IMG/VR virus record: IMGVR_UViG_3300028832_000129
Coordinates: 11,528 to 75,527 of that record
Direction: 5' to 3' (one strand)
DNA from: a virus
Lineage: Duplodnaviria > Heunggongvirae > Uroviricota > Caudoviricetes
Length of the DNA: 64,000 bases
The notes beneath the pieces are model-generated. The model ran no database searches. It had not been told where the DNA came from and worked only from the letters and a program-made list of their open reading frames with translations. Position numbers and translations under genes: made by a program. Of the stretch, positions 1,643-32,872 are shown in pieces; positions within the stretch are counted from its first letter, which is position 1; each line of letters starts with the position of its first letter.

Positions 1643-2155
1643 ATGAAAATGACCGTCAAGCACAGCTATCTTATCCAGCTTGCCAACATTCTTGCAAATT
1701 CCGCCAGGATTTTCACCGGCGACTGCCAGGGAAGCGTCGCCTACAAGGTGTACATGAACCGCAATACCGCCAAGACCTACCTTGACGGCTTCATCCAGGC
1801 CTTCCCGGAAGACCCGAAATGGTTCGAATACACCCAGAAGCACGACAGCGTGTATGCCGAGGCCAACGTGCAGACGGCAGCCGAACTCGCCGCCCTTCCC
1901 CAGGAAAAGCAGGCCGAAATCACCGAAGCCGTGGCAAAAATCGATGCCGAATACAAGGACGTCATCGAAAAGAACCGCGCCATGGAGGCAGAACGCCGCA
2001 AGACCCTCGAGGAGATGGTGGAAGTGGACCTCTACACGGTAAAGCCGACCGACATCCATATCAAGGGTGAAAACTCCTGGGAAATCTGGGAAATCCTCTA
2101 CAACGACGGCAACGGCATCATCCGCGATGACGAAGCCAAGCCGATGGAGGCATAA
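1643..2155 (+). CDS. Hypothetical protein, 170 aa.
   Basis: Intact ORF. The AGAGG upstream is the inferred RBS. Coiled-coil-like KQAEITEAVAKIDAEYKD segment. Confidence 0.5.
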   Translation: MKMTVKHSYLIQLANILANSARIFTGDCQGSVAYKVYMNRNTAKTYLDGFIQAFPEDPKWFEYTQKHDSVYAEANVQTAAELAALPQEKQAEITEAVAKIDAEYKDVIEKNRAMEAERRKTLEEMVEVDLYTVKPTDIHIKGENSWEIWEILYNDGNGIIRDDEAKPMEA

Positions 2156-2158
2156 CAT

Positions 2159-3301
2159 ATGGCAACACTGAGTGCTTGCATTGTCGTCAAGAACGGCAAG
2201 GGCAGCATACTCAGGTGCCTGGACGCGTTGCTGCCCATGGCAAATGAGTATGTCGTAGTGGATACCGGCTCAGTTGACGGTACACTGGAACTCATTGCCG
2301 ACTGGCAGAAACACCATCCCAAGCAGAGGCTTATCCTCGACAAGGTTGGGCGGAAGTTCCACGATGCCGACGGGGTGTTTGACTTCGGCGCGGCAAAGGA
2401 CTATGCTATCTCCCTTGCCACTTGCCAATACGTCATGTGGGTGGATGTCAACGACATCCTCCTTGACGGGAAGCACGCCAGGGAGCTGTTCCAGAAAATC
2501 GTCTCGAAGTACCCAACGGCCGGCATCAGCATGCTGACCAAGGTCACTCCGACCCATTCGTTCCCGAGGCTGCGCATCCTCCCGAGGGAAAGTGCTAAGT
2601 TCAAGGGGATTATCCACGAGATGGTGGTCAACACTAACCCGGACGCCCCCACGATACATACCAAGTGCACGTTCGAGAACTACAAGTCCAGCAGGGACAT
2701 CCTCCGCAATATCGCCGGGCTCAAGAAGTCCTGGGAACAGGAACGCACCCAGCGCACGGCGTTCTATTTCGGCAATTCCTATATCGACCTGAAGGACTAC
2801 GGGCACGCATACGAATGGTACAGTGTGGCTGTAGACGCCTTCCCCGACCAGCACAACGAGGACAGGCTGAAGTCGCTGGAACAGATTTGCTCCATGATTG
2901 TGGCCACTAGGACAGACCTGGAGGAACTCGGCGCCCGGTCGCTGCAGCTAATCGAGGAGTTCCCTACCAGGGGCGAAGGGTACTATTACAGGGCCCGGTA
3001 CAATTTCGAGACCGGGAACTACAACATGGCCCTCAAGTGCCTCGACCAGCTGATGACCATCAAGGCGCCCAAGATGCACAACCTCTGGCTCAACTCGAAG
3101 ATATACGACAAGGAGGAAATCCGTTCGATTATCTTCATGGTGAAGGAGGAACTGCAGCGCAACGAGTCGGCCAGCCTAATCGACGCCGACCCGATGCAGC
3201 CCGACATGATAGACGCCGGATACGGGTACGGGGGGTATGACGGGCTGCCCGCCCACCTGAATTTCGGCACTACCGCGCCGGGATACAACGCGTTCATTTA
3301 A
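2159..3301 (+). CDS. Family 2 glycosyltransferase with a C-terminal helical, TPR-like extension.
   Basis: N-terminus CIVVKNGKGSILRCLDAL...YVVVDTGSVDGTLELI matches the GT2 DxGSxDGT nucleotide-sugar binding fold. Followed by a rho-independent terminator. Confidence 0.65.
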   Translation: MATLSACIVVKNGKGSILRCLDALLPMANEYVVVDTGSVDGTLELIADWQKHHPKQRLILDKVGRKFHDADGVFDFGAAKDYAISLATCQYVMWVDVNDILLDGKHARELFQKIVSKYPTAGISMLTKVTPTHSFPRLRILPRESAKFKGIIHEMVVNTNPDAPTIHTKCTFENYKSSRDILRNIAGLKKSWEQERTQRTAFYFGNSYIDLKDYGHAYEWYSVAVDAFPDQHNEDRLKSLEQICSMIVATRTDLEELGARSLQLIEEFPTRGEGYYYRARYNFETGNYNMALKCLDQLMTIKAPKMHNLWLNSKIYDKEEIRSIIFMVKEELQRNESASLIDADPMQPDMIDAGYGYGGYDGLPAHLNFGTTAPGYNAFI

Positions 3302-3303
3302 GC

Positions 3304-3332
3304 GGGGGCGGTGAGGAACCGCCCTTCTTTTT
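3304..3332 (+). terminator. Rho-independent terminator.
   Basis: GGGCGGT-gagga-ACCGCCC hairpin followed by TTCTTTTT. Confidence 0.6.
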
Positions 3333-3383
3333 GGCCCACAACAATCATAAACTACGGAAAACTGACTGTCCAAGGTACTAGCG

Positions 3384-6300
3384 ATGAACACTCTTTACGA
3401 CTTGGTTACTAAAATCGACGCGCTTACGGCAAATTCGCAGCAAGTCCTGAACGCCCTAATCAGGTCATGCGTGGCCTCCGGGTCGTCCAGCGGCTACAAG
3501 GTGAAAAAATACGGCGAGGAGATAGAGCTGGACCGGGCGGACATCTACCATCTTTACGATTTCTACCAGTCATGGGAGGCCGAGGGCTTCCCGTCCGACG
3601 AGTCCGAGTTCAATTCGCTGCTCGCCAGGGCAGATGCCCGCTGGAGGGTCGGCGAGGGCGATACGAGTACCCTGGCCAGCGACGCCGTCGCCAAGCACGC
3701 GAAGATTCTGTACCTCACCAAGGAACAGGCCGCCAAGCTAGAGGACGAGAATACCAGGGAAGCGACCGAGGCTCAGCTGAATACGAGCTACTGGGTCAAC
3801 CGGATTAGGGAATCCGCTACCCCGAAGGGCACCATTTCTAGTGCGCCAATCCCTCTCAACCTGCGTACCCCGCTGTACGACGAGAACCTTTCGGTCAAGT
3901 CTTTCAGTCAGTTCGAGACTTACCTGTTCCCCATGGGCTACCACCGTGCGGAAATCCTCGGGACTCCCGGGAACGGCGAGGACTATGTCGCCGGCGGACG
4001 CAACTGGACTATTGACGTCACTGACTTCCTTACACTCAGCGGGAACCATATCCTGCTCGGCAACAACAGCCTCCCCGTAAACAAGCTAGAAGGATACGGC
4101 GACAAGAGCCTCAATATCAGCTGGGGCAACGAGAGCTACGCCTTCGGTAACCTGTCGCTCGCCTTCGGCGACCATTCCGTGGCGCAGGCTGACGGTTCGC
4201 TCATATTCGGCAACCACTGCTATGGCCAGGGAATAGACTCGTTCATTGCCGGCGGCGACCGCAATCTCACGGTAATGGACAACGCGTTCGCGACGAACCA
4301 GCGCAATACGGCTGTCGCCAAGAACAGCTTTGCGGCAAATTACAACAACTATGCCGGCGGCTGGGGTTATGACTTTACCTTTATCGGGTCCGCCGACCCG
4401 AACGTGGTGAATACCGAGTGCGACGTGACCTATATCGAGTCCGAGGACGTTTGTGTATCGAATAAGACTGTAACCGATGTGCTCGGCGACAGTGCACTAT
4501 ATAAGGTGCTCTGCATTTCTGCTGATGACGTGACGCTTGCCAAGCTTCCGTTTGAGGAAACCATGCAGGTGGGCGACTATGTCGTTATCTATAACATGTG
4601 GGTAAAGAAGGATGGTTTCCAGAATACTGCCACTAGCATAGACGGGTATGCCGCCGATACGGTGATTGCCAAGATTACCAATATTACAAGGGTTAACATC
4701 GAGGGCACTAGTGACCTGGACCACTATGAAGTCACTCTGTCTACTCCGGTTCCTATCAAGAGCAAGAACGGCGTGTTTGGGGGCGGAACGGTTTCCTCAT
4801 ACATGAGGAGGGTTGTCCGGCATGATATCGACGGGAATCTCCTGGACAGGGACGATGTGTTACTTGGACTCAACTCGACTACCTTTGGACATGGCCATTC
4901 GGCAATCGGGCATAACCAGACCGTTGTGGGCCAGATGAGCGTTCCGAACATCGATGCAAAGTTTGTCGTCGGTACAGGCAGCTCCTACATATTCAGCAAG
5001 GACGAGGACGTATACAGGTCAAATTCGCTCGTTATCGGCGATACGTACAGCTATATGAAGCTGGCCAACGGCAGGAGCTATATCGGCGTGTCTACGCATA
5101 GCCAGCAAATCGATGACATGGGGGCGGACGATAATGGGACGGTGACATTGCCTAAGGGAACGGTGATGGCCACCAGGGACAAGTACACTCATGATTCAAC
5201 TAGGGTAGCCACCGATTCGAAGCTTGCATTCATGCAGGCCGAAAACAACCAGGGACCTGTGTCCAGGGTATGTATAGGCAGTACGATGCCTAGCACTGCC
5301 GGAGTCGGAACCTATCCTACCGCGTTGATGCAGAGCGTAAAGGGCACGACGGTAATTGCCGGCGGCGTCACGTATGTCGACGAGGTAACCGAACAGAAGC
5401 GTAACCTTGTGGAGACTCTTATCGATGCATCCCAGGTCATCATTTCCGGGGACGACAACGCTGTCGGAATCTATGCAAAGGATGGAATCGACATCAGGAA
5501 CGTCAACCCGTCCCGAGGCATCAACATCGAGACAAAGAACTGCATTGCGCTCAGGTTCAAGAACCTTGTTCTTGACGGGGATGATACGTTCGGGTCATTG
5601 ACCGCTACCGGTCGGGCACTGTCGTTCATCCTGGACAAGCAGGATGGGTCTGACAATAACGGGGCGCTTGATTCCATCCTCTGGGGTCATACCACGGGCA
5701 AGAGCGGCTTTTACTACATTGACGGTGGCAACAGCAATTCCAGACTGTTCGATGCAGCTGCCATTACCATGGGGACGACATCCAAGTATGACGGGAACCG
5801 GCTCCATCTGTACAACAGCGTACAGGCAAGCATAACCGACAACAAGTATCACGTTGCATCCCTGTCTATCCCGGAAGTCTCTACTGTCGTTCCCAGTGGC
5901 TATGCGTTACGCCCGAAAGTAACTACCGGTATAATTGACGGTGTAGGCGGTGCCGTTGGCAATGTGCTGACCAGCAAGGAAATCCCTTACATGGACGATA
6001 TCGGCGTATGGTCTTCTGCCCCGATGTCATGTTTCGGATTTATTAGGGGAGGCTCGTCGGTTTCGACACTTGACGCGGCATGCGATTTGTCCGATATCGA
6101 CGACTACGTGTATATGCCGTTGTTGCGGTTTGATAGAGATAGTAATGCATGGGTCTATAACCCTAGTAAAATATATGCCAAGATTTCTGCATCCGGTGGC
6201 TCCCGGAATGAATCCTATCTTCTAAGGTACAACGAGGCACGTATTGAATTGATGCATAATGACAACGGCACCACAGTTAAGTTTGGTGAAATGTCGGTAA

Positions 6301-6845
6301 TGTCTACATCTATCAATGATAATGAGGTTGATGTACAGGGAGAACTCACGTTTATAGTTAACGGTGAAACAAGCGAATTTTTAACGCGAATAAGTGATGG
6401 CTTCAGAATACCATTCATACCGGGATTTGCTACCCAGAGTACGGGTGACAAGTTTGTGCAGGCGGGCACTCCGCTGGCGAATAACGCCATATACAAGCGT
6501 ATAGCCGGTCGTCAGCAGTTGGTTACTAGACTCGACGGCGGTTATTATAGTTCATGGGGATGCAGCGGTGACGATGCCGACGACGACAATGTTTCGTATT
6601 ATGGTTTTGGCATTCAGCCGGGAATTCTGTGTATGGAAATACGGCGGCATACTAATTTTGCTACTCACTGGGAAGGCGATAAGCCGTACAGGTTCCGCTT
6701 ACAGGGGAAAGTGCCATTCGAGGCAACCAGCGAATGCATGGGGATGAACATCAACACTAGATGGAATGACGCATTGCGGGCATGTTATAAGAACAGGGTA
6801 TTGTATCCGATAAGTGAACTGGCCGCCATTCTGCAGGGAGTATAA
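3384..6845 (+). CDS. Large tail-fibre or receptor-binding-like protein, 1,153 aa.
   Basis: Repetitive Asn/Gly/Ser-rich beta-helix-like repeats (NISWGNESYAFGNLSLAFGDHSVAQADGSLIFGNH...). The last ~250 codons, from about 6100, are markedly AT-richer than the rest. Confidence 0.55.
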   Translation: MNTLYDLVTKIDALTANSQQVLNALIRSCVASGSSSGYKVKKYGEEIELDRADIYHLYDFYQSWEAEGFPSDESEFNSLLARADARWRVGEGDTSTLASDAVAKHAKILYLTKEQAAKLEDENTREATEAQLNTSYWVNRIRESATPKGTISSAPIPLNLRTPLYDENLSVKSFSQFETYLFPMGYHRAEILGTPGNGEDYVAGGRNWTIDVTDFLTLSGNHILLGNNSLPVNKLEGYGDKSLNISWGNESYAFGNLSLAFGDHSVAQADGSLIFGNHCYGQGIDSFIAGGDRNLTVMDNAFATNQRNTAVAKNSFAANYNNYAGGWGYDFTFIGSADPNVVNTECDVTYIESEDVCVSNKTVTDVLGDSALYKVLCISADDVTLAKLPFEETMQVGDYVVIYNMWVKKDGFQNTATSIDGYAADTVIAKITNITRVNIEGTSDLDHYEVTLSTPVPIKSKNGVFGGGTVSSYMRRVVRHDIDGNLLDRDDVLLGLNSTTFGHGHSAIGHNQTVVGQMSVPNIDAKFVVGTGSSYIFSKDEDVYRSNSLVIGDTYSYMKLANGRSYIGVSTHSQQIDDMGADDNGTVTLPKGTVMATRDKYTHDSTRVATDSKLAFMQAENNQGPVSRVCIGSTMPSTAGVGTYPTALMQSVKGTTVIAGGVTYVDEVTEQKRNLVETLIDASQVIISGDDNAVGIYAKDGIDIRNVNPSRGINIETKNCIALRFKNLVLDGDDTFGSLTATGRALSFILDKQDGSDNNGALDSILWGHTTGKSGFYYIDGGNSNSRLFDAAAITMGTTSKYDGNRLHLYNSVQASITDNKYHVASLSIPEVSTVVPSGYALRPKVTTGIIDGVGGAVGNVLTSKEIPYMDDIGVWSSAPMSCFGFIRGGSSVSTLDAACDLSDIDDYVYMPLLRFDRDSNAWVYNPSKIYAKISASGGSRNESYLLRYNEARIELMHNDNGTTVKFGEMSVMSTSINDNEVDVQGELTFIVNGETSEFLTRISDGFRIPFIPGFATQSTGDKFVQAGTPLANNAIYKRIAGRQQLVTRLDGGYYSSWGCSGDDADDDNVSYYGFGIQPGILCMEIRRHTNFATHWEGDKPYRFRLQGKVPFEATSECMGMNINTRWNDALRACYKNRVLYPISELAAILQGV

Positions 6846-6846
6846 T

Positions 6847-8643
6847 ATGGCCGACAATCAAAAATACATTCGTGCCAACATACGTGACATCAACGCATTG
6901 GAACACATCACTTCCGACGTGGCAAAATCCAGGTCGAACTACGAGTCCATCCTCAACGGCCTCGTCGCCTGGAATACCACGGACAACCCGAACGTCACGG
7001 TCCGCCTTTCGACGGACAACTACCCGTATTTCGTCGACTACACTTTCCCGTCAAGGTCGACCTTCGCTACAGGCGGCGGCACAGTCGCCGAGGAGGGGCT
7101 GTATCCGGGAATCTTTGACTATGCCAACATGATAGACATGGTGGCCACCACTTCGGACGAGGCGACGCTCAGGCTGACGGTCGCGTCGGGAAACCGTGGA
7201 AGCTGGACACTGTTCGAGGAAGCCATGGTCACCGAGGATGGCACCACGGCGTCGATGCCGTACAAGAAGGGGCAGTTCATCCGAAGGCCCAACACCAATA
7301 CGGGAACGTACCTCGTATGCGTCGCCACGGCCGATATAGACGAAGGCACCACGCTCGACGAGTCCAATACCAGGAAAGTAGTGACACGATGGAAAATTGA
7401 CGACTACGCGTCATACGGGGAATATCCCGGTACAGTCACGTTTACTGTCGACACGAGTTCCGACACGGTCAAAATCGTATCGGCCTATGTCCTCCGCGGG
7501 CCCAGTACCAATGCTGCCCCAGGACGCCCGAACAGCGCATGGGAACGTATAGCCGACTCGATTTCGGGAAAAAAGGTAGGCACGATGTTCGAGCCGGGGA
7601 AGCTCTACATCTATTCTTCCCAGGACGACCTTTCCGATGCCGCCCTGTACATGTACATAGGCGACCCCAAGGAGAAGCCTGCGGACAATTCGCTGGTACC
7701 CGTGGACGAACACGGGGAGCTCGATGACAAGGACTGGTACGGCCCGGTAATCATGGTTCCGGTAACCAACATCACCAGGTCAGCGGTGCTGCACCACGTG
7801 CCTACCACGGACATCAACGGGTTCATCCTCAGGTCCAACTCGTACGACACGACGTCCGTATCCGCCATTTCGAACCTGGCTGTACACGAGGGGACTTCCG
7901 AGCCGAACAAGGGCCTCAAGATATTCGGCACTAGCAACTATGCCAGGTGGCCGGATACCGAGTCAAGGATATGGCATACCGGCATTGACTACTCCACTTC
8001 GAGCCACTACACGGCAGAGATGGTGTTCCACCATGCAAGCGACGAGGTGAAGACCTGCAACATCGTCAACTACGACGGGCCTGACCTTGACCGCGGCCTA
8101 GCAATCTACCTCCCGGTAAACGACCGCATCGTCGGCGACAACGGGGAGGATGCTTACGTTGAGCCGAAGGACGGCGCGATGTTCGAGTTCCTGTTCAGGA
8201 TTTGGCCGAACACGGCATACAACGGCGCGACCACGCCCGACCTCATCATCAACAAGGCCCAAATCTACGTGTACAGCGCGAAGCGTTCCGACGAGCTTGA
8301 CAGCGCGAGGGTGCTCGCCAAGTTCAGCATGGCAAGGCTCACCAACTTCTACCTGTGGGCGGAAAACGTGGCCGTCCCGGCTCGTCCCGTGTTCTACAAG
8401 GCTAAGTTCATCTACTCGAGGGACGACAAGGAATGGCGCACCTACGACTATTACCAGGTGCCCGACCATGTGTTCCTGTCCCCGAAGGGCTTCGTCGACC
8501 CGGCAAACCGCAATGACGACACCTACGGCGAGGACGGAGATTTCAGCGGCGTGCAGACGGCGGGCTTCCCGCTCATGCAGGACCCGTTCGCTGAACTGGA
8601 CATGTCTCCCGTGCGGATGAACCGCATCGAGCACAACGACTGA
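6847..8643 (+). CDS. Hypothetical structural protein, ~598 aa.
   Basis: The ATG at 6847 directly after the upstream TAA is the likely start, rather than the track's 6814. Long intact ORF followed by a terminator hairpin. Confidence 0.5.
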   Translation: MADNQKYIRANIRDINALEHITSDVAKSRSNYESILNGLVAWNTTDNPNVTVRLSTDNYPYFVDYTFPSRSTFATGGGTVAEEGLYPGIFDYANMIDMVATTSDEATLRLTVASGNRGSWTLFEEAMVTEDGTTASMPYKKGQFIRRPNTNTGTYLVCVATADIDEGTTLDESNTRKVVTRWKIDDYASYGEYPGTVTFTVDTSSDTVKIVSAYVLRGPSTNAAPGRPNSAWERIADSISGKKVGTMFEPGKLYIYSSQDDLSDAALYMYIGDPKEKPADNSLVPVDEHGELDDKDWYGPVIMVPVTNITRSAVLHHVPTTDINGFILRSNSYDTTSVSAISNLAVHEGTSEPNKGLKIFGTSNYARWPDTESRIWHTGIDYSTSSHYTAEMVFHHASDEVKTCNIVNYDGPDLDRGLAIYLPVNDRIVGDNGEDAYVEPKDGAMFEFLFRIWPNTAYNGATTPDLIINKAQIYVYSAKRSDELDSARVLAKFSMARLTNFYLWAENVAVPARPVFYKAKFIYSRDDKEWRTYDYYQVPDHVFLSPKGFVDPANRNDDTYGEDGDFSGVQTAGFPLMQDPFAELDMSPVRMNRIEHND

Positions 8644-8668
8644 CCGGATACGCGAATGGATTAGTTTA

Positions 8669-8700
8669 GTGGGCGGCCATGCGGCCGTCCACTTGTTTTT
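8669..8700 (+). terminator. Rho-independent terminator.
   Basis: GTGGGCGGCC-atgc-GGCCGTCCAC hairpin plus TTGTTTTTGGG. Confidence 0.6.
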
Positions 8701-8741
8701 GGGCACCCGGGAGCATAAACTACGAAAAACGCGAGAGTCTT

Positions 8742-11700
8742 ATGAGCGAAACGAACCCCTACATTGTCAAGGAACACAAAGGCGATTTCGAGAACACCAT
8801 CCAGTATTTCGTTACTGGCAGGCCTCTTACCACCGATGAGGAAATGCGCCCGGACAGCCACGGGGTGCACCCGGTGAGTCCCCTGGGGTTCATGATTAAG
8901 GAGGACGGCACCACCCTGGCGCCGGCCGAGCCATTGAGCGGGTTCTCCGCGTACGGGGATTCCGGATGTACCGCGCAGGAGGCGTACGACGACTCGTATA
9001 AGGTATCCGGCAAGTACTATATGTACGGCAGCGACGTCATCTCGTTCCCCGTGCTGGACATACACCGCAGCGAGGACGGTACCAAGATTCTGGTTACCGT
9101 GAACGGCCTCCTTCCGCAGCCGGAAAACTCGCAGAGCTTCTATTTCAGGAATATTACTTCCGACGACTATACGCCTACAGGACTCGTCGGCACTACGTTC
9201 AGCAATCTTGACTCGTTGACCCAGGATGTCGGCAGCGGCACCACGGCAATCGCGCTTACGACCGACATCGTCTTTGACGGTACTGTTGGCGAGGGCAAGC
9301 TGGCATTTTGTGTAAACCATGAGGTCAGCGGCCACAAGTTCCTTACTGTCGAGGACCCGGATTCCGATACGCTTAGCGGCATATATGTATGGGGTGAATC
9401 CGAGGGCGAGCCTATCCGCAAGATATTCAACTGGGGAAGCTGCGAAGTCGGCGAGACGGAGGATACCGGCGGGCCGTGCTATGAAGGGAACGGGTACAGC
9501 GATACAGAGGTTGCCAAGTGGGTAAACGAGAAGGTCGGCGCGATGACGCACTACGGGTGCCATCCGTCGAGCGAGCCCGGTGACATCCGCGATGCGGGTG
9601 GACTAGTGAACTGGTTCGTCACCAACGGCGACGTGGACATTACCGGGGGTGCCGGGAATACTTCCGTGATGATTCCGGGGTTCGGACTGGGCCAGGGATT
9701 CCAGGGAAAATATGCCGTGGACACCGGTACCAACGTAAGGACAGAGGACCCGGACGAAACTTCGGAACATAAGTGGCTCACGTTCGGCTACGGCACCAAG
9801 CACGATGCATACGCTGCCGACGTGGGCAAGACTGCACTCCCGCTCGACTGGCCGTTCTCCCATTCGTCTGATTACGCCGACGAGAAGAGGGACAACAACA
9901 TAACACTGATTAAGGACGGGGTGCAGTTCTACGACGGGACTGACACGAGCGTGGTAGGCGGGCTCACCCGGATTTCCCGGGAGTGCCACGTGTGCGACGG
10001 TACTGGGGTCGTAATAGAGGGGCCATGCCATAACTGCGGCGGTACCGGCGAGGAGCCGGATTGCGAGACTTGTGGCGGCTCGGGCAAGGTAATTGACTCC
10101 GTTACTCAAGAGGAACACGAGTGTCCCGATTGCCATGGTATGGGCTTCCTGGGAGGTCACCGCTACGTTATGGACAAGGTACACGTGTGCCTATATAACG
10201 ACTTCAAGCCGAGCGACGGTGCGCATGACCATACTGCCGGCACTACCGTACTGAAGAAGACATTTGTAAATCTCGCCACCCCGATTACCCAGAAGGACGG
10301 CGATACGTTCGAGGTGACCGTGTCCTTGCCGAACGTCAACATCCCTGACGCATATTCCGGCAACGACGCGATGCAGAACCTCAGCGGGTACTATGCATAC
10401 GTATCGCAACCGAGAGTGTATGTCGTAAGCGGTACGTGGGAATTCAGCGACACCAGGGTGTTTTTCGATACCAAGGATTTGCTGACGTATGACCTTGGCG
10501 ACACGATGTTCAAGGCCAGGAAAGGCTTTCAACTCGATAACAATACCGAGGTAAAGGTTAAGATTAGCTTCGACGCTTACAGCAGAAAGAAGTTTGCCGG
10601 CATTGGCATCATTGCGGACGGACGGTATGTCGTGCTGAAAGAAGCACTGAATATTCCGGCTGTACTCCTGCGCAAAATCAAGAGGAGCGCAGATTCGGAC
10701 GGAAACATCAAGGGCTCCATCTGCGGTGCCGCCTACGTGGAGGCAAACAACGATACGCTGACACAGGCAATACAGACCGATATCGGTCTGAATGCCGTGC
10801 GAAATGAAGAGGGTGCTCTTGGAAAGGACATGGGAAATGGTGAGGCAAACTCTCTCCAGCAATACAACAAGCTTTATACGGCCGATATCGAGAATGGTAC
10901 CAGGAAGCATGTCCTGTTTGAAGCCGACGGGACTCCCAGGAAAGACCAGCGGCAGATTGTGGCGACTGTCTACCCGACCACCACGAATACGTTCCCGTGG
11001 GCGCTGACGCACCGACGGAAGCTCGGCTTCCTCGACAAGCTGATGACAATGGAGTCCGACGCCGGGGTCAACGGGATGTTCGCCAGGGTTTACAGGATGA
11101 ACCGGGCAATCCTTGAAAGCATACCGATGTCCGAATCGCTGGCTCCCGAGGACTACCCGCTGGACATGTACAGCACGGCATCCTGGAATTCCCAGGAGAA
11201 CGACAGGCTATCAATCATAGGGGCGCTGCTCACGGTCGTCATGGACCCGGATGTCGACGTTTCCAGGAAATCTCAGGCCCAGCCAGTACGCCGTGCTCTT
11301 GCCGCGGTGAAGATGCTGGCCGAGGACTACAGGAACGCCAGGGTATCCAGGCTCGGGGATGTCGGCGCCGGCGTCACGTCCTATGTGTCTTACGCCAAAA
11401 TTCGCAAGGACGGGTCGGCACTTTCGGACTATTCGAGCCTCGGCAGCACGGTCGACCTGAATTCCCGCAACGACTACGAGGGAATGGCTAACGCCATAAG
11501 GCTGCGGCATCTCCCGGAATTCCTGGCTGCGGCCGGGACGGACGAGTATACCGGGGAACCGCTTTCCCCCAGCCTGGACGCTTATCCGTACAGGGATAAC
11601 TCCAAGTATTCATACTACAGCGGCAACCCGTATGGCTACGGTACATTCGACACGACGACACGCACCGAGGAGGTGCCGTGCGAGGTCGCTTCCTCTACCG

Positions 11701-13172
11701 GAACCGAGGCGTGGCCGATGAGCAACAGCATAGTAAAGGCGTGCATAGGAAAGGTGGATGACACCGTTACCGTGGAGGAGCTGTACCGCTCGGCGGAACT
11801 GCACGCAATCGACTTCAGCGACATAGGCGACATCCTGCAGCCGCAGGCACACCGGTCGGGGACGGACATATCCTGGCTTGACGCAATCGACGCGTTCACG
11901 AAGATTGTATCGCCGGACAACATACCTGTACCGAGCACGGGCGGCATTGATTACACCCTGTTGTTTGACCAGAAGGAAGACCAGCTACCGTTCATCATGG
12001 CCGATGCGTACGGATACTACAGGGTACTTACTGCTATTGACTGGGACGGTGCGGATTACTTCATAGCCACTACGATGCCGACCGACGATTCGCTGGCATT
12101 GTTCCTCAAGGACTACGTTCCTGGCTATGCGGCGCGGCTTGCCGTCAGAAACTGGGACAGTTACCGAGTGAAGGTGACAAGCCCGGCGACGCCGTCACCT
12201 GATACGGCCTATCTTACCAGGATGCACTGGTATGACCCTGAGTGCGACGCGGCGAGCCGCGGTATCTATGCGTCCGACGCGTTCATTGTCGGCAACGAGT
12301 TCTCCGACATGAACATGAACAGGATTGAGTTCAGCAGCGCGGACAAGGCCCGTTCGCTGAACTGCAGCGTCCCTCCGTACAGCGTGAAGGACGACTACAA
12401 TATTCTGGCGCCGTTCGCTACCGAGAACGACCCGTACTCGGTCAGCTACATCCGCGTGTTCATGAAGTTCGCATTCTCCGAGGATGCCGGCCGATGGTAC
12501 TGCATGGACTACAGGCAGGCACCGGTTTCCTACCTGAGCCCGCTTTACGGCGCGAAGGCGCTCGACCAGACTGTCGACGGAAAGAGACTATGGTCTCGCC
12601 CGGAATGCGTGTCCGCGAAGTGGCAGGCCCCGTTGATGCATACGTACGAGGAGTACTGCCCGCTGGACATCAACCCGTCACTAGTCCGCTCGGTGATGCG
12701 CAAGGACGCCAACGGGGAATGCCCGCTGATGTTCCCGTATCTCCCGGTGGATGACGGCGGTCTCGGCCTGAACGCTCCCGTGAACAAGGCGGGGACTTCT
12801 ACGGCGGAGTCAATCGCCTCGATGCCGCACGCGAACTTCTGGAGCGTCCGGGAGTTCCTACGTCCAGCCACGGGCGCCGCGAACGTGGGCGACATACCGA
12901 GATACTACAAGGACCATGGTGAATGGACATGGGGAGAAACCGGAGGTATCATGTCGGATGCGGTCCTTTGGGGACAGTACGACTATCCACACAAGGGAAA
13001 CCCGGAATACCATATTCCGGACACCGATATCCCGGATGCTGACCTCAGCAAGCGCAGCATGGTATATGCACGGCGCAATGGCACTACTCAACTGATGGAC
13101 ACCGGCGATATACAGGTGGGGCCGCATGAGAATACTGTGCTCGCCGTATCGTACGGGGCAGGCCGCGAATAA
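8742..13172 (+). CDS. Giant virion or tail protein, ~1,477 aa, with an internal DnaJ-type CXXCXGXG zinc-finger domain.
   Basis: The ATG at 8742 (MSETNPYIV) lies downstream of the terminator, so the track start at 8679 sits inside the hairpin. Residues CHVCDGTGVV...CHNCGGTGEEPDCETCGGSGKV...CPDCHGMGF (about nt 9982-10150) form four CxxCxGxG repeats. Confidence 0.55.
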   Translation: MSETNPYIVKEHKGDFENTIQYFVTGRPLTTDEEMRPDSHGVHPVSPLGFMIKEDGTTLAPAEPLSGFSAYGDSGCTAQEAYDDSYKVSGKYYMYGSDVISFPVLDIHRSEDGTKILVTVNGLLPQPENSQSFYFRNITSDDYTPTGLVGTTFSNLDSLTQDVGSGTTAIALTTDIVFDGTVGEGKLAFCVNHEVSGHKFLTVEDPDSDTLSGIYVWGESEGEPIRKIFNWGSCEVGETEDTGGPCYEGNGYSDTEVAKWVNEKVGAMTHYGCHPSSEPGDIRDAGGLVNWFVTNGDVDITGGAGNTSVMIPGFGLGQGFQGKYAVDTGTNVRTEDPDETSEHKWLTFGYGTKHDAYAADVGKTALPLDWPFSHSSDYADEKRDNNITLIKDGVQFYDGTDTSVVGGLTRISRECHVCDGTGVVIEGPCHNCGGTGEEPDCETCGGSGKVIDSVTQEEHECPDCHGMGFLGGHRYVMDKVHVCLYNDFKPSDGAHDHTAGTTVLKKTFVNLATPITQKDGDTFEVTVSLPNVNIPDAYSGNDAMQNLSGYYAYVSQPRVYVVSGTWEFSDTRVFFDTKDLLTYDLGDTMFKARKGFQLDNNTEVKVKISFDAYSRKKFAGIGIIADGRYVVLKEALNIPAVLLRKIKRSADSDGNIKGSICGAAYVEANNDTLTQAIQTDIGLNAVRNEEGALGKDMGNGEANSLQQYNKLYTADIENGTRKHVLFEADGTPRKDQRQIVATVYPTTTNTFPWALTHRRKLGFLDKLMTMESDAGVNGMFARVYRMNRAILESIPMSESLAPEDYPLDMYSTASWNSQENDRLSIIGALLTVVMDPDVDVSRKSQAQPVRRALAAVKMLAEDYRNARVSRLGDVGAGVTSYVSYAKIRKDGSALSDYSSLGSTVDLNSRNDYEGMANAIRLRHLPEFLAAAGTDEYTGEPLSPSLDAYPYRDNSKYSYYSGNPYGYGTFDTTTRTEEVPCEVASSTGTEAWPMSNSIVKACIGKVDDTVTVEELYRSAELHAIDFSDIGDILQPQAHRSGTDISWLDAIDAFTKIVSPDNIPVPSTGGIDYTLLFDQKEDQLPFIMADAYGYYRVLTAIDWDGADYFIATTMPTDDSLALFLKDYVPGYAARLAVRNWDSYRVKVTSPATPSPDTAYLTRMHWYDPECDAASRGIYASDAFIVGNEFSDMNMNRIEFSSADKARSLNCSVPPYSVKDDYNILAPFATENDPYSVSYIRVFMKFAFSEDAGRWYCMDYRQAPVSYLSPLYGAKALDQTVDGKRLWSRPECVSAKWQAPLMHTYEEYCPLDINPSLVRSVMRKDANGECPLMFPYLPVDDGGLGLNAPVNKAGTSTAESIASMPHANFWSVREFLRPATGAANVGDIPRYYKDHGEWTWGETGGIMSDAVLWGQYDYPHKGNPEYHIPDTDIPDADLSKRSMVYARRNGTTQLMDTGDIQVGPHENTVLAVSYGAGRE

Positions 13173-13198
13173 ACTTTTAGAGGAATTGACGGTAGAAT

Positions 13199-14821
13199 AT
13201 GGCACAGATTGAACAAGAACGAATTTCCGCGCTGGATAGCTTGGTTACCCAGTCAGCGGACGGCGTTAACGAGCTCATAGAGTCCACTGTTGAAGCAGCA
13301 AAGTGGGCCATGGCGGTGGACTACATTGTCCCCGATAGTGATACCGCCAACCAGGAAGACTTGGTAGACCAGGGTACAAAGCGTATACCGGTAAGCCGAA
13401 TTGGCTTGCTGACTGATAGCCGTACCGTTCCACAGTCCATGTTACCTCACCAGATGGACGAGATTCTTAATGGACGAATGGTGCATGATACAGGTACCGG
13501 AAAATGGACATTCACCACTACCGTCGACGGGGTGCAGGTGGTATATGTATGCCCTGGTCCCCCGGTAGGAGATGAACGGCGGCCGGACATTAGTACTATA
13601 TACCGGGATGTAAGTGACGAAGACCAGGATGGAAACCCAATCTACACTCAGTATAGATATGTGCCGGATGACAATGCTGATGTTGGAACTGCCTCCGAAA
13701 CAGGGAGTTTCGTTCCTATTCCGAGTGACCTAGTCATGATAAATGGTGCCGGGACGGTAGTATCTGATAACGATGGCTCATACACCAGGGCCGTTGATAT
13801 TGTTATCGGTGCCCCTGCGGCGGAAACCAATACACATAATAGTCTCTTAATCAGCAGTGGCAAACTTTCGCATGCTACGAGTGGTGTGGCTGCCGGTACG
13901 TATCCAACCCCTCCGCAATCGTCTCAGTTGACGTTTGGCGGCACATTCGCCGTAGATGCATTTACCGTTAACTCGACTGGCCATGTTACCGCAGTCACTC
14001 CGTATTCGCTGACTGTGCCTAATACGGCGGCTTCACTATCTACCGAGGGATTGGTAAAGATAGGCAGTACCGATGACATACAAAATATAGGCCAGCAAAA
14101 ATCGGCGGGTACAACGACACCGAGTCCTTATGTAAAGGTTGCCGCCGCCGACCATGTCCATGCAGCATCCCATTTGATTCTGGAAAATATCAATGATTCC
14201 ACCAATTTCCAAAATGGGAGATTGGAATATACGGGTGCTGGTTCGGATATTGAATATAGTTTCAAGAATATTTTGAAGGCTACACTTCCGACTAATGGGC
14301 CGACTGCTGCCGGACAACTGTTGGTCAGCGTCGGAAATTCCGTTGCTAATATGCAGGCCGTCTGGAGAAATCCCGATGATGTATTTGCGCCAGAGTATGC
14401 ATTTGTGAAGGTTGCTAGCGGATGTACGTGTGGTACCTCTCCGGTTACCGTTCCATTCGATACATCAACGGAAACCCATGGCGGTAGCATGACGGTTGCA
14501 CAAACCGAATTTGGCGGGCTGAAGGCAGGCAAGGCATATGTCGTGTGCTTTAACTTTGGGTTCTCACATTCGTCAGCGACAACGTTTATTGAAGATGCCG
14601 TTGTAACAGTACAGACCGGCGCCGATTCCCAGTGGACAAGTGCGGCGGAGTATCGTTATTATCTGGACGGCTCAATTACTGGCGTATCAAACTATATAAA
14701 CGGTTGCATCATATTCTCGGTACCCAATGGTCATACATTAGCGAGACTCCGGCTGAATACAGGCCGGTCAACGTGGAACATTACTACTGACAGTAGCGTA
14801 CAAATTGCAGAGGTTAAGTAG
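13199..14821 (+). CDS. Tail-fibre or receptor-binding-like protein, paralog A, 540 aa.
   Basis: Shares a long collinear block with the next ORF: DIVIGAPAAETNTH...TFGGTF..DAFTVNSTGHVTAVTPYSLTVPNTAASLSTEGLVKIG...QQKSAGTTTPSPYVKVAAADHVH. Moderate GC. Ends with TAG. Confidence 0.55.
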   Translation: MAQIEQERISALDSLVTQSADGVNELIESTVEAAKWAMAVDYIVPDSDTANQEDLVDQGTKRIPVSRIGLLTDSRTVPQSMLPHQMDEILNGRMVHDTGTGKWTFTTTVDGVQVVYVCPGPPVGDERRPDISTIYRDVSDEDQDGNPIYTQYRYVPDDNADVGTASETGSFVPIPSDLVMINGAGTVVSDNDGSYTRAVDIVIGAPAAETNTHNSLLISSGKLSHATSGVAAGTYPTPPQSSQLTFGGTFAVDAFTVNSTGHVTAVTPYSLTVPNTAASLSTEGLVKIGSTDDIQNIGQQKSAGTTTPSPYVKVAAADHVHAASHLILENINDSTNFQNGRLEYTGAGSDIEYSFKNILKATLPTNGPTAAGQLLVSVGNSVANMQAVWRNPDDVFAPEYAFVKVASGCTCGTSPVTVPFDTSTETHGGSMTVAQTEFGGLKAGKAYVVCFNFGFSHSSATTFIEDAVVTVQTGADSQWTSAAEYRYYLDGSITGVSNYINGCIIFSVPNGHTLARLRLNTGRSTWNITTDSSVQIAEVK

Positions 14822-14823
14822 GA

Positions 14824-16374
14824 ATGGACCCGATAATCTACAAGAGAACCCACAAGAGGATACGCGAGCTTAATCAGTTCGAGGAAACTCAGGGTGGAGT
14901 TGACCCAATCGGAACACTGATGGGCTCGTCGGTGGCAAGTAAATGGTGTACAGCATTTGATGCGAGTGATTCATCCGTTGAACCTGATGATTCGTATAGC
15001 GTGCCATTAAGCCGATTGATTCTTCTTAGCCCGAACCGGAAAGTTCCGGCTGCGTTTTTGCCATCCTCGGTTTCTTCCGGCGAACTGCTGGTTACCCGCA
15101 CATATTCAGGTAGCGGCGACCCGAGGGAATGTCTACCTAATGTGGGTGAACAATATTACGGCAACATGAACCTTATCTTTAAGGTGGAAAGAACTGGACA
15201 GCCCGATGCATTTTATAGGTACGCATACACTGATTCCATGGATATACAGGAATGGTATGAAGTATACCATTCGCTATCGGACCGGCATGGGTTCTCTAAC
15301 GGTCAGGGTACAGTTGTTAGCGATACCATAAATCCGTCGACTGGAGCATATCATAGGGAAATTGATATCAATATCGGAACACCGGCTGCACATACGGACA
15401 CTATATTATCGATTACGAGTAGCAGTCCGTATAAGCTCGTGCATACGTTGAGCCAGAACACCAATGTCGATGCACCGGTACCTGCATCCGAGCCTGTGTT
15501 GTCGTTTGGGGGGTCATTATATACCCCAACACTAACTGTTGACAGTACAGGACATGTATCTAGCATAGTGTCGCAATCTTATACTTTGCCGAACACCCCC
15601 GCGGAAAAGGGTACGAACACTGATATTGCCGGTCTTGTTCGGATAGGGAACAGCAGTACATCTATAGGAACCCAGAAATCCGCCGGGCATACATCGGTGG
15701 ACAGTGAGCACCCATATATTCTGGTATCGGCCGCCGACCACAAGCATGATATGGCGAAGCTTGCATTTGTCGACAGCAATGATGACATTTCATATCAGGG
15801 CATGACGGATGTACCTGGTGTGGGAACGATAAGATATGATTTCAACCATATCGTGCAGGCCACGCTGCCAAGTGCCCCATTGTCTGCCGGACAGTTTGTC
15901 CTTACTGCCGAGTCGGCAACGACCCAGTCCAATTATGGAAGTACACGATGGACCACTATCGATAATGCGTTGCCGAACCAAGAGGGTATTGGTTCCGGGA
16001 CGGCTGTAATGCGAACCGTAGCTACTTCGCTTGGGTCGATTGCGCCGTTGGTTCAAGGTGGTATCTATCTGGTTACAATGAACATCATGGTTGAAGTTAC
16101 CGGTGGAGTCGGTGCACAGTCGGTTGCGCCTGTGCCTACGTTGCATGAACTTGAACTGACCATAGGAAACCATGTTGAAAAAATTACAATTCCCGGTTCC
16201 TGGACATGCACTGCACTTCCGAATAGTGGCATGCGATGGCTTGGCATGGCGACATTTATAATGATGGCGGCCGGTACAGCTGCACCAATGTCTGGCCGTA
16301 TGCCGGCACCGGACACCACTTATGATGGCGTATTTAAAGTAACGTGCGGTGCAATAGCCGAGCGTCTCAGGTAG
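14824..16374 (+). CDS. Tail-fibre or receptor-binding-like protein, paralog B, 516 aa.
   Basis: Tandem paralog of 13199..14821: DINIGTPAAHTDT...SFGGSLYTPTLTVDSTGHVSSIVSQSYTLPNTPAEKGTNTDIAGLVRIG...TQKSAGHTSV...ILVSAADHKH. Confidence 0.55.
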   Translation: MDPIIYKRTHKRIRELNQFEETQGGVDPIGTLMGSSVASKWCTAFDASDSSVEPDDSYSVPLSRLILLSPNRKVPAAFLPSSVSSGELLVTRTYSGSGDPRECLPNVGEQYYGNMNLIFKVERTGQPDAFYRYAYTDSMDIQEWYEVYHSLSDRHGFSNGQGTVVSDTINPSTGAYHREIDINIGTPAAHTDTILSITSSSPYKLVHTLSQNTNVDAPVPASEPVLSFGGSLYTPTLTVDSTGHVSSIVSQSYTLPNTPAEKGTNTDIAGLVRIGNSSTSIGTQKSAGHTSVDSEHPYILVSAADHKHDMAKLAFVDSNDDISYQGMTDVPGVGTIRYDFNHIVQATLPSAPLSAGQFVLTAESATTQSNYGSTRWTTIDNALPNQEGIGSGTAVMRTVATSLGSIAPLVQGGIYLVTMNIMVEVTGGVGAQSVAPVPTLHELELTIGNHVEKITIPGSWTCTALPNSGMRWLGMATFIMMAAGTAAPMSGRMPAPDTTYDGVFKVTCGAIAERLR

Positions 16375-18238: not shown

Positions 18239-18505
18239 ATGAATGCCAGGATTGAAGACTTTGCAGCAGATTACGTGGTCGTCCCGCTCTTCTCGGCGGG
18301 CAGTTACGGAATCGTCAACGTGAACCGCGGCGACATGACCGACAAGGAATGGGCCGTATGGAACCGCGCACGCACTGCCCCGGAAATCAAGGAAGCCATC
18401 AACAAGGCAGCTCGCCCGTCGGAAATCCCGGGAAGGGTGATTGCTGTCCTAGACGAAAGAGGAATACCGAGATGCCTTACAAATCAGGAACGTCCTATTA
18501 TGTAA
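18239..18505 (+). CDS. Hypothetical protein, 88 aa.
   Basis: First ORF after the promoter motif. Overlaps the start of the next gene. Confidence 0.35.
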   Translation: MNARIEDFAADYVVVPLFSAGSYGIVNVNRGDMTDKEWAVWNRARTAPEIKEAINKAARPSEIPGRVIAVLDERGIPRCLTNQERPIM

Positions 18506-19311
18506 CCGACAAGGACTGCGAGACTGCCTTCGCGCAGTGCAAGGCGTGCGAGTTCGTGTCCGACAACAAGAACTACAGGTCCATTGTCGAGAGCACGTAC
18601 CTAACTGTCCGCGATACGGATGACATCAACGCGTCGTGCGGAAGGCTCACCGATGCTGTCAGGAACCACCTGAACCAGTATTACCCAGTGGTGGACTGGA
18701 ACCAGTACACGCATATCCTGTCGGTATACGCCGGGATGCTCCGGTGGGTCAACATGGTCGCACACGTGTGCGAGTACATCGACCGCACGCACAGGATTGG
18801 CGAGGCGAAGAAGATGCTCGCCTGGTCGGCCACAAGGCTCACCTCGTTCGAGGCCGGCAGCGACTTCGTGCAGAGGTTCCTCGACGAGTTCCACATCCAG
18901 TGCGACGGGCATCGCGAGGAAGTTGTCAGGATGTACGCAATCGCCATCCTTGTCGGCCTCATCGGCCACGAGCTCGGCCACGCGTGCCTCGGTCACTACG
19001 GCCAGCCGGACCAGAACTCGATTTCCAGGAACAACGAGCGCTGCGCCGACATGTTCGCCTCCTCGGTCGCCCAGTCAATCGGCAACGGGTACGCCGGCGC
19101 AATCGGCGCCGTGGTGCTCGACGTGTCGTTCATGTGGCTCGCCGGGAAGCATTCCGCATACGTGACCAACGGCAGCGCCAAGGACAACAAGTTCATGTCG
19201 CACCCGGTGTCCATCGACCGAGTGAAGGCTTTCGTCGAGTCCTTCAACACGGTGCTGGTAACGTCGCCCGTGACGGCCAAGATGCTCATGAAGCTCACGA
19301 AGGATGCATAG
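18471..19311 (+). CDS. Putative Zn-dependent metallopeptidase with an HExxH motif.
   Basis: ATG at 18471 (MPYKSGTSYY) preceded by GAGGAATA. LIGHELGHACLGH is an HExxH zinc-binding motif, as in ImmA/IrrE-like peptidases. Confidence 0.55.
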
Positions 19312-23522: not shown

Positions 23523-24431
23523 TCAACCTGTAATGAATCCAATGAAGTATCGTTTGTTTTCTTCATAATATTTTTCCCATATATCGATAACTGCCTGCAC
23601 ATGTTTCTTTTCTACGTTATCCATCTTATGGATACAATCGGTGTATGGTGATGCGAGTGCAACATTATCGGCTCCTATATCAGCTATTACCTCATATTCG
23701 TTGCTTTTGCCTGCGCGAGCTACCCATTCGGTTAACATATAGTCTGCCCATCCAAGCAAGGTTTTGTTTTCAATCTTGTTGTTTGGGTGGTCCATGCCAG
23801 TATTGAAAGCCAGAATCTTAAGATTTCCATTATATTCTGACCGTTTTAGACCGGCGTTCAGCACGGCGATTGGCGAATTTGCCCAGCATCCACCGTCAAT
23901 ATATGATTGTCCATCCTTTATGACAACGTCAAAATAGGACGGAGCGGCAGTGCTGGTCAGAATAGCCAACCATTTGTCCGTATCGGTATCACCTAAATCC
24001 CATACTTTTTCTACGCTTTTTCCATTGGTGTGTGTAGTTGGAATAAATATAGGTTTTTTCCAATCGGAAACTTTCCCAGTAAACTTAGATTTTAGTATTT
24101 TAATGAGATTAGTGTTGTCATATGTTGGACATGTAGGTTGTACCCGTTTGTACCATGGATATTTTGTGAATATCTTCCCTAGGTTATTGTAATACAGGTC
24201 GAATAGGTCATGCGCTGAATATCCCTCGTCTAGTCCACCCGCAATGATGGCCCCGGTTGATGTACCGGCAAATGCGATTGCAATATCACCCAGCTTTTTG
24301 CCGATGTCCTGTTCGAGCCTACACATGAAGGCAAGTGGGCCGATACCCAGTGCGCCGCCACCGTTTACGCTGATAGCTATATTCTTCATAATTATACCCC
24401 TGTTTTCTTGCAGTTTATTCGGGTGCCGCAT
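23523..24431 (-). CDS. Patatin-like phospholipase (PNPLA family).
   Basis: GGGALGIG oxyanion motif, AGTSTGAIIAG (GxSxG nucleophile elbow) and DGGCWANSP (catalytic DGG). Alternative start at the internal Met (24389). It is the only minus-strand gene here. Confidence 0.75.
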   Translation of the reverse strand: MRHPNKLQENRGIIMKNIAISVNGGGALGIGPLAFMCRLEQDIGKKLGDIAIAFAGTSTGAIIAGGLDEGYSAHDLFDLYYNNLGKIFTKYPWYKRVQPTCPTYDNTNLIKILKSKFTGKVSDWKKPIFIPTTHTNGKSVEKVWDLGDTDTDKWLAILTSTAAPSYFDVVIKDGQSYIDGGCWANSPIAVLNAGLKRSEYNGNLKILAFNTGMDHPNNKIENKTLLGWADYMLTEWVARAGKSNEYEVIADIGADNVALASPYTDCIHKMDNVEKKHVQAVIDIWEKYYEENKRYFIGFITG

Positions 24432-24461
24432 AAACTATGGATATCGAAGTGGACGGTTGCC

Positions 24462-28631: not shown

Positions 28632-28704
28632 GCGGGAATAGCTCAGTTGGTAGAGCGCGACCTTCCCAAGGTCGATGTCGAGGGTTCGAGCCCCTTTTCC
28701 CGCT
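28632..28704 (+). tRNA. tRNA-Gly(CCC).
   Basis: GCGGGAATAGCTCAGTTGGTAGAGCG..CGACC-TTCCCAA-GGTCG..GGTTCGAGCC..TTCCCGC. Clean cloverleaf. The CCA is not encoded. Confidence 0.85.
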
Positions 28705-28964
28705 CTAACAAGTTGGCGTACATGCGCCGCATCACGCGGAGTTGGCCATTCGAATGTTCCTAGGTTCGAAACTGGGGACAGGAGAGCCACCTAGGGCTCC
28801 GTGAAACGTGCGGGTCGGGCCTGGCGCTGCGCTTGGTTTGATGCTGTCCTGTGCTGTGGCCCTCCGCGAGGAGTCTAAACGGCTTGCGGTGCGGTCGACG
28901 GTGTCGCCTCCGTCGCGGTGCGTGCAAAACCCGGTCTGCACAGATGTTGCGCATGAACGCCAAC

Positions 28965-28980
28965 TTTTTGCTATATTTGG
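28965..28980 (+). promoter_or_regulatory. Phage promoter motif TTTTTGCTATATTTGG.
   Basis: Exact motif ~60 nt upstream of the 29042 gene. Confidence 0.5.
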
Positions 28981-29041
28981 GGTAGGCCATACGTGCCTAC
29001 CCTTTATTATATTGTCAACACCATAACTATCAAGGTTATAA

Positions 29042-31648: not shown

Positions 31649-31664
31649 TACAAAGGAGTACCAT

Positions 31665-32015
31665 ATGCTTGTATATGTACCGAATTTTATTACCCTATTG
31701 CGACAGAGGTATTCTACTCTGAAGTTGCCTGGCGGCATCCATTATGATAATTCTGCAGTGCTGTGTCGCATGCAGTATGAGGTGCGCCTTGAGAAGAAGG
31801 TAGGCTCGAAAACTATCGTCGTGGAACTCGTGGCAAGATACGGTAAAGTCGAATTCCGGAAGCCGTTCACCGAGGATTTCTTGACAACTGGAGACCCGTC
31901 AAAGGTGATGGAGAAAATCAACGAGTATGCTGACGATGGATACGTCGTGTCGCATCAGACGCTGATGTACGGGGCGTCTGACAGCTGCGCCTATACACCA
32001 ACGAGTAGAATGTAA
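31665..32015 (+). CDS. Hypothetical protein, 116 aa.
   Basis: Intact ORF immediately after the paralog. Confidence 0.45.
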   Translation: MLVYVPNFITLLRQRYSTLKLPGGIHYDNSAVLCRMQYEVRLEKKVGSKTIVVELVARYGKVEFRKPFTEDFLTTGDPSKVMEKINEYADDGYVVSHQTLMYGASDSCAYTPTSRM

Positions 32016-32431
32016 CGAAAATTTTACACATTTTTCTTGCATTTTCCCTTGCCATTTCATTCGTTTTTATCTACTATTGCTATAAACATTACGTCAAAGG
32101 AATTAAAGATGCTAAAGCAACTCAACAATCTGTGCAAATTAACAGCTGCGGCCCAGGACGCACGTTATTTTGGCATTTTGGGTTTCGCAGGAAAAGCGGA
32201 GGCTGATGCAACTTAGTTCCAGGTAGACGAAAAGGTTTACGAGAGACGAAAAGGGCGGTTGCATCAGCAGGCAACCGCCCTTTCCGTTTAACCATTCGGG
32301 GGCGCATGTTCCAAGGTGGCGAATGATGCTGGCAGCATCGTTGAGAAGGATTCGATTTCCTTCGCTTCCATTAAAGCAAGGCTCGAGCAGCCTTGCGGTA
32401 GATTGACAGTTCGGATGCGATATGTTTTATG

Positions 32432-32697: not shown

Positions 32698-32704
32698 TAT
32701 TTCG

Positions 32705-32865: not shown

Positions 32866-32872
32866 TATCATG

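Follow-up and report, generated by a model that had tools for sequence, protein, structure and literature searches.

A giant protein encoded by an uncultured huge phage carries a fourfold CxxCxGxG module that most likely forms two tandem zinc hairpins, inserted between two conserved β-strands and gained or lost among relatives in steps of two motifs. We analyzed 64,000 nucleotides (nt) of IMG/VR record IMGVR_UViG_3300028832_000129 (positions 11,528 to 75,527; Caudoviricetes), hereafter the window, and call the protein Z. Our best overall reading, to which we assign a probability of roughly 0.55, is that the hairpins are zinc-stapled, finger-like projections on an exposed β-hairpin and serve as a compact surface for interaction or decoration. 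The gene and the parts of its module, including strands predicted by AlphaFold2 (AF2), are as follows (aa, amino acids).

8742..13172, + strand: gene for Z, the giant host protein (1,476 aa plus stop), from the list of open reading frames (ORFs), the translation, and homologue N-termini
9891..9920, + strand: N-terminal flanking strand DNNITLIKDG, with N386 and T389 invariant; AF2 strand 386–391 (numbered from nt 8739)
9984..10145, + strand: fourfold CxxCxGxG module, aa 415–468 from ATG 8742, from sequence, PF00684, PDB profile, and AF2
9984..10049, + strand: hairpin unit A, with motif 1 (CHVCDGTG, 9984–10007), a 6-aa linker (VVIEGP), and motif 2 (CHNCGGTG, 10026–10049)
10050..10061, + strand: connector EEPD between the units, 4 aa, nearly constant in length and 70% identical in close homologues
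10062..10145, + strand: hairpin unit B, with motif 3 (CETCGGSG, 10062–10085), a 12-aa linker (KVIDSVTQEEHE), and motif 4 (CPDCHGMG, 10122–10145)
10167..10205, + strand: C-terminal flanking strand VMDKVHVCLYNDF, with H482 and N487 invariant; AF2 strand 474–488 (numbered from nt 8739)

The module peptide, CHVCDGTG-VVIEGP-CHNCGGTG-EEPD-CETCGGSG-KVIDSVTQEEHE-CPDCHGMG, was read in frame on the + strand from nt 9984–10145, as a preliminary description of this DNA had proposed. Motifs started at nt 9984, 10026, 10062, and 10122 (aa 415, 429, 441, and 461 from ATG 8742), the last ended at nt 10145, and the 54 residues held eight of the 23 cysteines of Z. A chance origin of the array was excluded: for a protein with the composition of Z, the expected number of C..C.G.G motifs is 0.003, and 55 of 20,000 shuffled versions of Z contained one motif and none contained two. 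Elsewhere in the six frames of the window, this pattern occurred only as two isolated matches in reverse-strand frames, neither corresponding to an accepted gene. In the Pfam scan suggested by the preliminary description, PF00684 (DnaJ_CXXCXGXG) scored 38.4 bits on an isolated 120-aa segment, against a gathering score of 32.7, and 29.5 bits, slightly under that score, on whole Z. A profile of the whole family matched only zinc domains of the cysteine-rich (CR) type in the PDB, namely the DnaJ CR domain (1exk, E 2e-5), the Q antiterminators 7ubj and 4mo1, Anti-TRAP, and BSD2. Because of the PF00684 and PDB matches, the motif can be assigned to the DnaJ CR type, and the concern that it might belong to a TNFR-like or other cysteine-rich fold can be set aside.

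Every homologue of Z begins with MSE.NPYIV, which aligns with ATG 8742, and this codon is therefore the most likely start. The tool-listed ORF (8679..13172, 1,497 aa) begins at the first in-frame ATG, 8679, which would add 21 N-terminal residues found in no homologue. The preliminary description rightly embedded the array in a giant protein; in our reading it lies about 415 residues in, and the length is 1,476 aa from ATG 8742 instead of 1,477. Alignments of Z used the translation from nt 8739, and their numbering is one higher than that from ATG 8742.

Relatives of Z are few and come from metagenomes only. We found 29 database homologues (31–98% identity), and only 75 relatives emerged when 1.84 billion cluster representatives were scanned in full with HMMER. 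A tblastn search of the 50,697 deposited phage genomes in INPHARED gave no match. Contigs bearing homologues were metagenomic and 200–466 kb long. Throughout the cluster look-up, members were annotated as 'hypothetical protein' or had no name. Outside the zinc module, Z matched no family in Pfam, PHROG, or NCBIfam; the single PHROG match, to a family of unknown function, ran through the module, and a BFVD search returned nothing at E <= 1e-3. Thus, sequence and profile searches detected no relative of known function or fold.

We counted motifs in 41 aligned full-length members (the window protein, the 29 database homologues, and 11 proteins from 14 IMG/VR loci) and counted CxxC motifs in a second set of roughly 45 further full-length representatives. 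No odd motif count occurred in either set. Modules were found at four sites, distributed as listed here.

Main loop, aa 416–470 (numbered from nt 8739), 0 motifs: P0022, P0025–P0027, L006, L007, and the outgroup L009–L013
Main loop, 2 motifs: P0010, P0018, P0021, P0023, P0024, P0028, P0029, L004, L005, and L008, plus the unaligned P0067 and P0068
Main loop, 4 motifs: the window protein, P0001, P0002, P0004, P0005, P0007–P0009, P0011–P0014, P0019, P0020, and L002
Main loop, 6 motifs: P0003, P0006, P0015–P0017, and L003
Second site, after aa 72, 2 or 4 motifs: P0002–P0009 (not in the window protein)
Third site, about aa 717, 2 motifs: P0022 and L007
Fourth site, about aa 1031–1046, 2 motifs: P0076

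Nearly all distant relatives, like the outgroup, lacked any CxxC motif. In homologues with zero motifs, a short turn joined the two flanking strands directly, and the scaffold was conserved in orthologues without the module (P0025–P0027, L006, and most distant members).

Several results bear on how the motifs pair. In the DnaJ CR domain, pairing is interleaved, with motifs 1 and 4 forming zinc centre I and motifs 2 and 3 forming centre II, whereas the two motifs of Anti-TRAP bind one zinc jointly. The preliminary description held the spacing in Z to be identical to that of DnaJ, but the start-to-start distances were 14/12/20 in the window module and 17/22/14 in E. coli DnaJ. Nor were the spacing or even the presence of the module conserved among homologues, which have 0, 2, 4, or 6 motifs; this is the outcome that the preliminary description had named as refuting its idea, and it speaks against a fixed DnaJ-like domain. 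Spacing was mostly 14 in two-motif members; in four-motif members it was 13–21, then 12, then 12–20, the value of 12 reflecting the connector, which hardly varies in length and reads EEPD in the closest homologues. One six-motif type had spacing 19/12/14/12/14, a period of 26 residues. Moreover, P0010, which is nested in the four-motif clade, retained motifs 3–4 only, with the 12-aa linker intact, and at the second site motifs 1–2 stood alone in P0002, P0007, P0008, and P0009 and motifs 3–4 alone in P0006. Because P0010 and these second-site copies hold single pairs with intact linkers, each adjacent pair appears to be viable by itself.

The structural model and profile comparisons agree with a two-motif unit. 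We modeled Z residues 1–640 with AF2 from a 30-sequence alignment. In the model, the module had predicted local distance difference test (pLDDT) values of 77–84 and projected as a whole from between the two conserved strands, DNNITL... and ...VMDKVHVCLYNDF; short strands lay between motifs 1 and 2 (424–425 and 428–429, numbered from nt 8739) and between motifs 3 and 4 (450–452 and 459–461). The deletion variants and this strand pattern suggest that pairing is likely to be 1+2 and 3+4, in tandem, and not interleaved as in DnaJ. A profile of 18 two-motif units aligned over its full length and without gaps to the zinc segment of Anti-TRAP (3lcz residues 10–34, E 5e-6), a protein of 53 residues in which two CXXCXGXG motifs occupy a zinc-binding segment at residues 9–36 (PMC2896485). 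As in Anti-TRAP (RtpA; PF15777; 2bx9, 3lcz), the two adjacent motifs lie 14 residues apart in unit A and in most two-motif homologues. Anti-TRAP differs in being free-standing, forming trimers and dodecamers, and binding TRAP, whereas the Z unit is an insert and is often in tandem. Anti-TRAP family models scored under their cut-offs on Z (Pfam PF15777, 19.3 vs 32 bits; NCBIfam RtpA NF058604, 17.5 vs 65). On this combined evidence, the unit is most likely an Anti-TRAP-like hairpin with two motifs and one zinc, and the window protein has two such units in tandem. The strictly even motif counts and invariant cysteines support the prediction that the Cys4 sites bind metal.

The history of the module was read from a neighbor-joining tree built with the module columns left out. 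The outgroup has 0 motifs, basal clades have 2, four-motif forms appear later, and six motifs arose at least twice; several losses also occurred, among them a reduction from four motifs to two in P0010. From the motif-less outgroup and distant relatives, it follows that the scaffold is older than the module, which in this sequence comparison is an acquired trait. Copying within the gene was also evident. The second-site unit of P0006 shared 62 of 84 nt and 19 of 28 aa with the final main-site unit in that gene, as compared with 30–42 of 84 nt in other registers, and the four-motif second-site modules of P0003–P0005 could be aligned along their length with main-site modules. Based upon these two results, the second site was seeded by an intragenic copy. 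A recent DNA-level tandem duplication within the window module was considered and rejected, as similarity between motif codons reached only 65–74% over 23 nt; because this similarity is weak, the four window motifs are old copies.

Among 11 close homologues, identity was 63% over the whole protein, 70% in the module flanks and in the EEPD connector, 39% at the x positions of the motifs, and 38% in the hairpin linkers, and the cysteine and glycine positions were invariant in aligned two-motif units. Such a contrast points to a scaffold stapled by metal, with tips that are free and probably exposed to solvent. Complete ligand sets were kept wherever the module was present, which argues for selection on the predicted metal binding at least.

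We propose the following model. In a giant protein specific to a clade of uncultured huge phages, a conserved β-hairpin would bear, as an insert at its tip, a small metal-stapled projection built from the four motifs, most likely as two Cys4 zinc hairpins in tandem. Each two-motif, one-metal hairpin would be an autonomous Anti-TRAP-like unit that needs no hydrophobic core. In two-motif steps, units have been acquired, lost, duplicated in tandem, and copied to other loops of the same gene, so that the number of projections would change one metal site at a time. Only the Cys/Gly skeleton would be constrained, and the hairpin tips would evolve quickly, as expected of a solvent-exposed surface for interaction or decoration.

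The genes around Z are listed below.

1643..3301, + strand: 170-aa ORF and family-2 glycosyltransferase (2159–3301), found ahead of the block in distant relatives too
3384..6845, + strand: C1153, upstream neighbor of 1,153 aa, syntenic in all related loci, with β-roll repeats at about aa 229–316
6814..8643, + strand: D609, upstream neighbor of about 600 aa, syntenic, with a very conserved C-terminal half and matching no known family
13199..16374, + strand: E540 (13199–14821) and F516 (14824–16374), downstream paralogues with invariant histidines, including HxH (AAADHVH)

The order 170-aa ORF, glycosyltransferase, C1153, D609, Z, E540, F516 (window 1643..16374; loci L001–L017) was conserved even in distant relatives, and a radical-SAM gene often lay upstream of the block. 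Given the constant glycosyltransferase, proteins of the block could be glycosylated. C1153 carries SxAxGxxA-type repeats, and its family profile matched the heads of trimeric autotransporter adhesins (UspA1 3ntn, E 1e-4, as well as BpaC and YadA). E540 and F516 are 30% identical and share invariant histidines, including HxH, and a TAGLVxIG-like motif; neither matched the PDB or another database. We take these motifs to recall the 'His boxes' of tail fibers. A distant homologue of 3,090 aa (P0115) has added Big_2, DUF285, and BspA-type leucine-rich-repeat (LRR_5) domains, and another distant member has added a CBM5/12 domain (CBM_5_12). At four additional hot spots, members of the Z family also carry large insertions, in none of which Pfam found a match (positions numbered from nt 8739).

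After aa 239: inserts of 150–180 aa in homologues
After aa 797: inserts of 170–184 aa
After aa 1328: an insert of about 127 aa
After aa 1354: an insert of 152 aa

The preliminary description took for granted that Z is a virion protein with structural modules, a point on which our searches were silent, as PHROGs, INPHARED tblastn, the PDB profile, and BFVD linked Z to no known virion protein. The C1153 repeats, the domains added in homologues, the conserved block, the insertion hot spots, and the E540/F516 motifs are our reasons, all of them indirect, for leaning toward an exposed fiber or adhesion role. We judge it fairly probable that Z is a virion-surface protein, and an exposed component associated with the tail fiber or baseplate is the probable form that this would take. 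Few stretches in the family are as conserved as the N-terminal ~50 residues of Z (window 8742..8960 = aa 1–73), where many positions are invariant, yet AF2 pLDDT values there were 30–40; this segment may be a docking element that folds only on a partner.

A number of points count against the reading we favor. The mean pLDDT of the AF2 model was about 62, a modest quality. Six-motif members P0003 and P0006 have spacing 15/18/12/12/20, an ambiguous topology in which a nested arrangement could exist. Motifs 3 and 4 of DnaJ, also at spacing 14, reportedly sit in different zinc centres, as described by Martinez-Yamout and colleagues in 2000, and spacing by itself therefore cannot fix the topology. 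With respect to location, the match of C1153 to adhesin repeats is weak (E 1e-4), added adhesion domains were seen in 2 of the 20 distant members scanned, and when the larger ORFs, about 30 of the 77 accepted ones, were scanned against Pfam and PHROG, none was recognized as a capsid, portal, sheath, or terminase gene to which a structural module could be anchored.

Structural metal ions are known to stabilize slender, core-poor exposed parts of phage fibers and spikes, for example at the HxH sites of T4 gp12 and gp37. Those sites, however, consist of inter-subunit histidines along a trimer axis and not of intrachain Cys4 knuckles. A more ambitious proposal, which we advance only tentatively, is that the hairpin is a self-folding mini-cassette that has been copied, multiplied, and pasted into loops exposed on a giant protein of the adhesion-module type, where its hypervariable tips diversify recognition of hosts or partners. 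If so, it would be a metal-stapled alternative to diversification by Ig-like domains or fiber tips. This option would be open to these phages because their habitats may be anoxic and reducing, conditions in which Cys4-zinc sites could survive extracellularly.

The same cassette might instead be nearly neutral and self-propagating, an inserted pair that folds around its metal, leaves the host loop undisturbed, and has no specific function. Repeated gain, loss, and intragenic copying, the many lineages that do without the module, and the hypervariability of all but the ligand skeleton would fit this idea. We nevertheless regard it as rather unlikely: the Cys/Gly skeleton is strictly kept and no decayed odd or partial copies occurred in the members examined, which implies purifying selection on metal binding, and expansion to six motifs happened at least twice.

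A function inside the cell is improbable. Under this alternative, the zinc module would bind nucleic acid or RNA polymerase in the manner of a Q antiterminator. The family profile does match the zinc regions of Q antiterminators (7ubj, 4mo1), PHROG families annotated as Q-like match as well, CxxCxGxG pairs occur inside HMO-2011-type phage DNA polymerases (PMC9038755), and the window contains many replication and RNA-related genes. HMO-2011-type polymerases and Q-like antiterminators resemble Z in that a DnaJ-type zinc module, partial and with two motifs in their case, lies inside a non-chaperone phage protein (PMC9038755; PMC5313236; PHROG matches). In those replication and transcription proteins, however, the insert is fixed at two motifs, whereas the Z insert varies in number and occupies several sites. 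In addition, Pfam, PDB-profile, and NCBIfam searches found no nucleic-acid-related domain in Z, most of the Z family lacks the module, and the neighbors and the domains fused to homologues are of the adhesion or fiber type.

We consider it very improbable that the module is a DnaJ-like chaperone element, either an intramolecular chaperone, as first suggested in the preliminary description, or a recruiter of Hsp70 for folding or assembling Z. In its favor, the motifs are of the type seen in the DnaJ CR domain, which contributes to substrate binding (PMC4428491), and the likeness to that domain (PF00684; 1exk) extends to the four copies of CxxCxGxG, a score above gathering for the isolated segment, and 1exk as the best PDB sequence match. 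Other features do not fit. A Pfam scan of the whole protein found PF00684 only and neither a J domain nor the DnaJ C-terminal domain; as compared with a type I Hsp40/DnaJ, Z lacks these and the G/F region in Pfam and NCBIfam scans, and NCBIfam DnaJ models scored 12–18 bits against cut-offs of 338–556. The spacing is unlike that of DnaJ, the number of motifs ranges from 0 to 6 among orthologues and their location also varies, and the module sits as an insert in a loop of an unrelated giant protein, with pairing that is probably tandem. Finally, orthologues without the module keep the rest of the protein conserved, and the module is therefore dispensable for folding.

Redox-active CxxC pairs acting as a thiol-disulfide oxidoreductase or isomerase are scarcely credible: the DnaJ CR domain has weak thiol-reductase activity (PMC4428491) and ZnJ6, a plant DnaJ-like zinc-finger protein, is reported to have an oxidizing activity (PMC7865324), but 0–6 motifs, four different loops, and hypervariable non-ligand residues would be unexpected for an enzyme, and a thioredoxin-like context is absent.

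The remainder of the window contains further features, some of them typical of huge phages. On the + strand, ARAGORN found an array of 33 tRNA genes (28632..42799), to which Rfam adds one at 39848..39924; the set spans most amino acids, as is typical of huge phages. A tmRNA lies at 38777..39138 (Rfam RF00023, 101 bits) and encodes the tag ADNAFAYAVAA (ARAGORN); an overlapping ARAGORN 'tmRNA*' call at 39044..39558 was without Rfam support and looks spurious. A HEARO RNA (RF02033, 122 bits) at 49802..50031 is followed immediately by a 422-aa ORF that encodes RRXRR (E 1e-59) and HNH domains. Judged by these matches, the pair (49802..51357 together) is an IscB-type OMEGA/HEARO element within a phage genome. 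Two ORFs, 24408..25922 and 29042..31648, contain FISUMP / Fib_succ_major domains (Pfam E 3e-17; partial NCBIfam TIGR02145 match); they may encode binding proteins and hint at a host of the Fibrobacter or Bacteroidota type. Auxiliary genes encode an M48-like peptidase (18349..19311), an NAD-dependent DNA ligase with a BRCT domain (25985..28093), an SPFH/Band-7 protein (44356..45159), and an enzyme of the CCA-adding/poly(A) polymerase family (48172..49428), and HNH endonucleases and further phage-type genes are present.

The motif class itself is familiar, and non-chaperone use is already known from Anti-TRAP, BSD2, Q antiterminators, and HMO-2011-type DNA polymerases. What is new here is the setting, a loop insert in a giant huge-phage protein, together with strictly pairwise changes in copy number over four sites, one of them seeded by an intragenic copy. 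A third new feature is the pairing, which is likely to be tandem where that of DnaJ is interleaved. CxxCxGxG zinc knuckles are usually taken as a sign of a DnaJ-like chaperone. In Z, the two-motif unit would instead be an autonomous structural insert, subject in this phage lineage to gain, loss, duplication, and relocation inside a single gene, one metal site per step, and annotators should be cautious in applying the labels 'DnaJ' or 'chaperone' to such proteins. With 0, 1, 2, or 3 hairpins and four sites, the Z family would provide a natural series for grafting a mini-domain onto loops. If Z is a receptor-binding component, then the hairpin tips would be candidate determinants of host range in a clade that has no cultured member or annotated structural genes.

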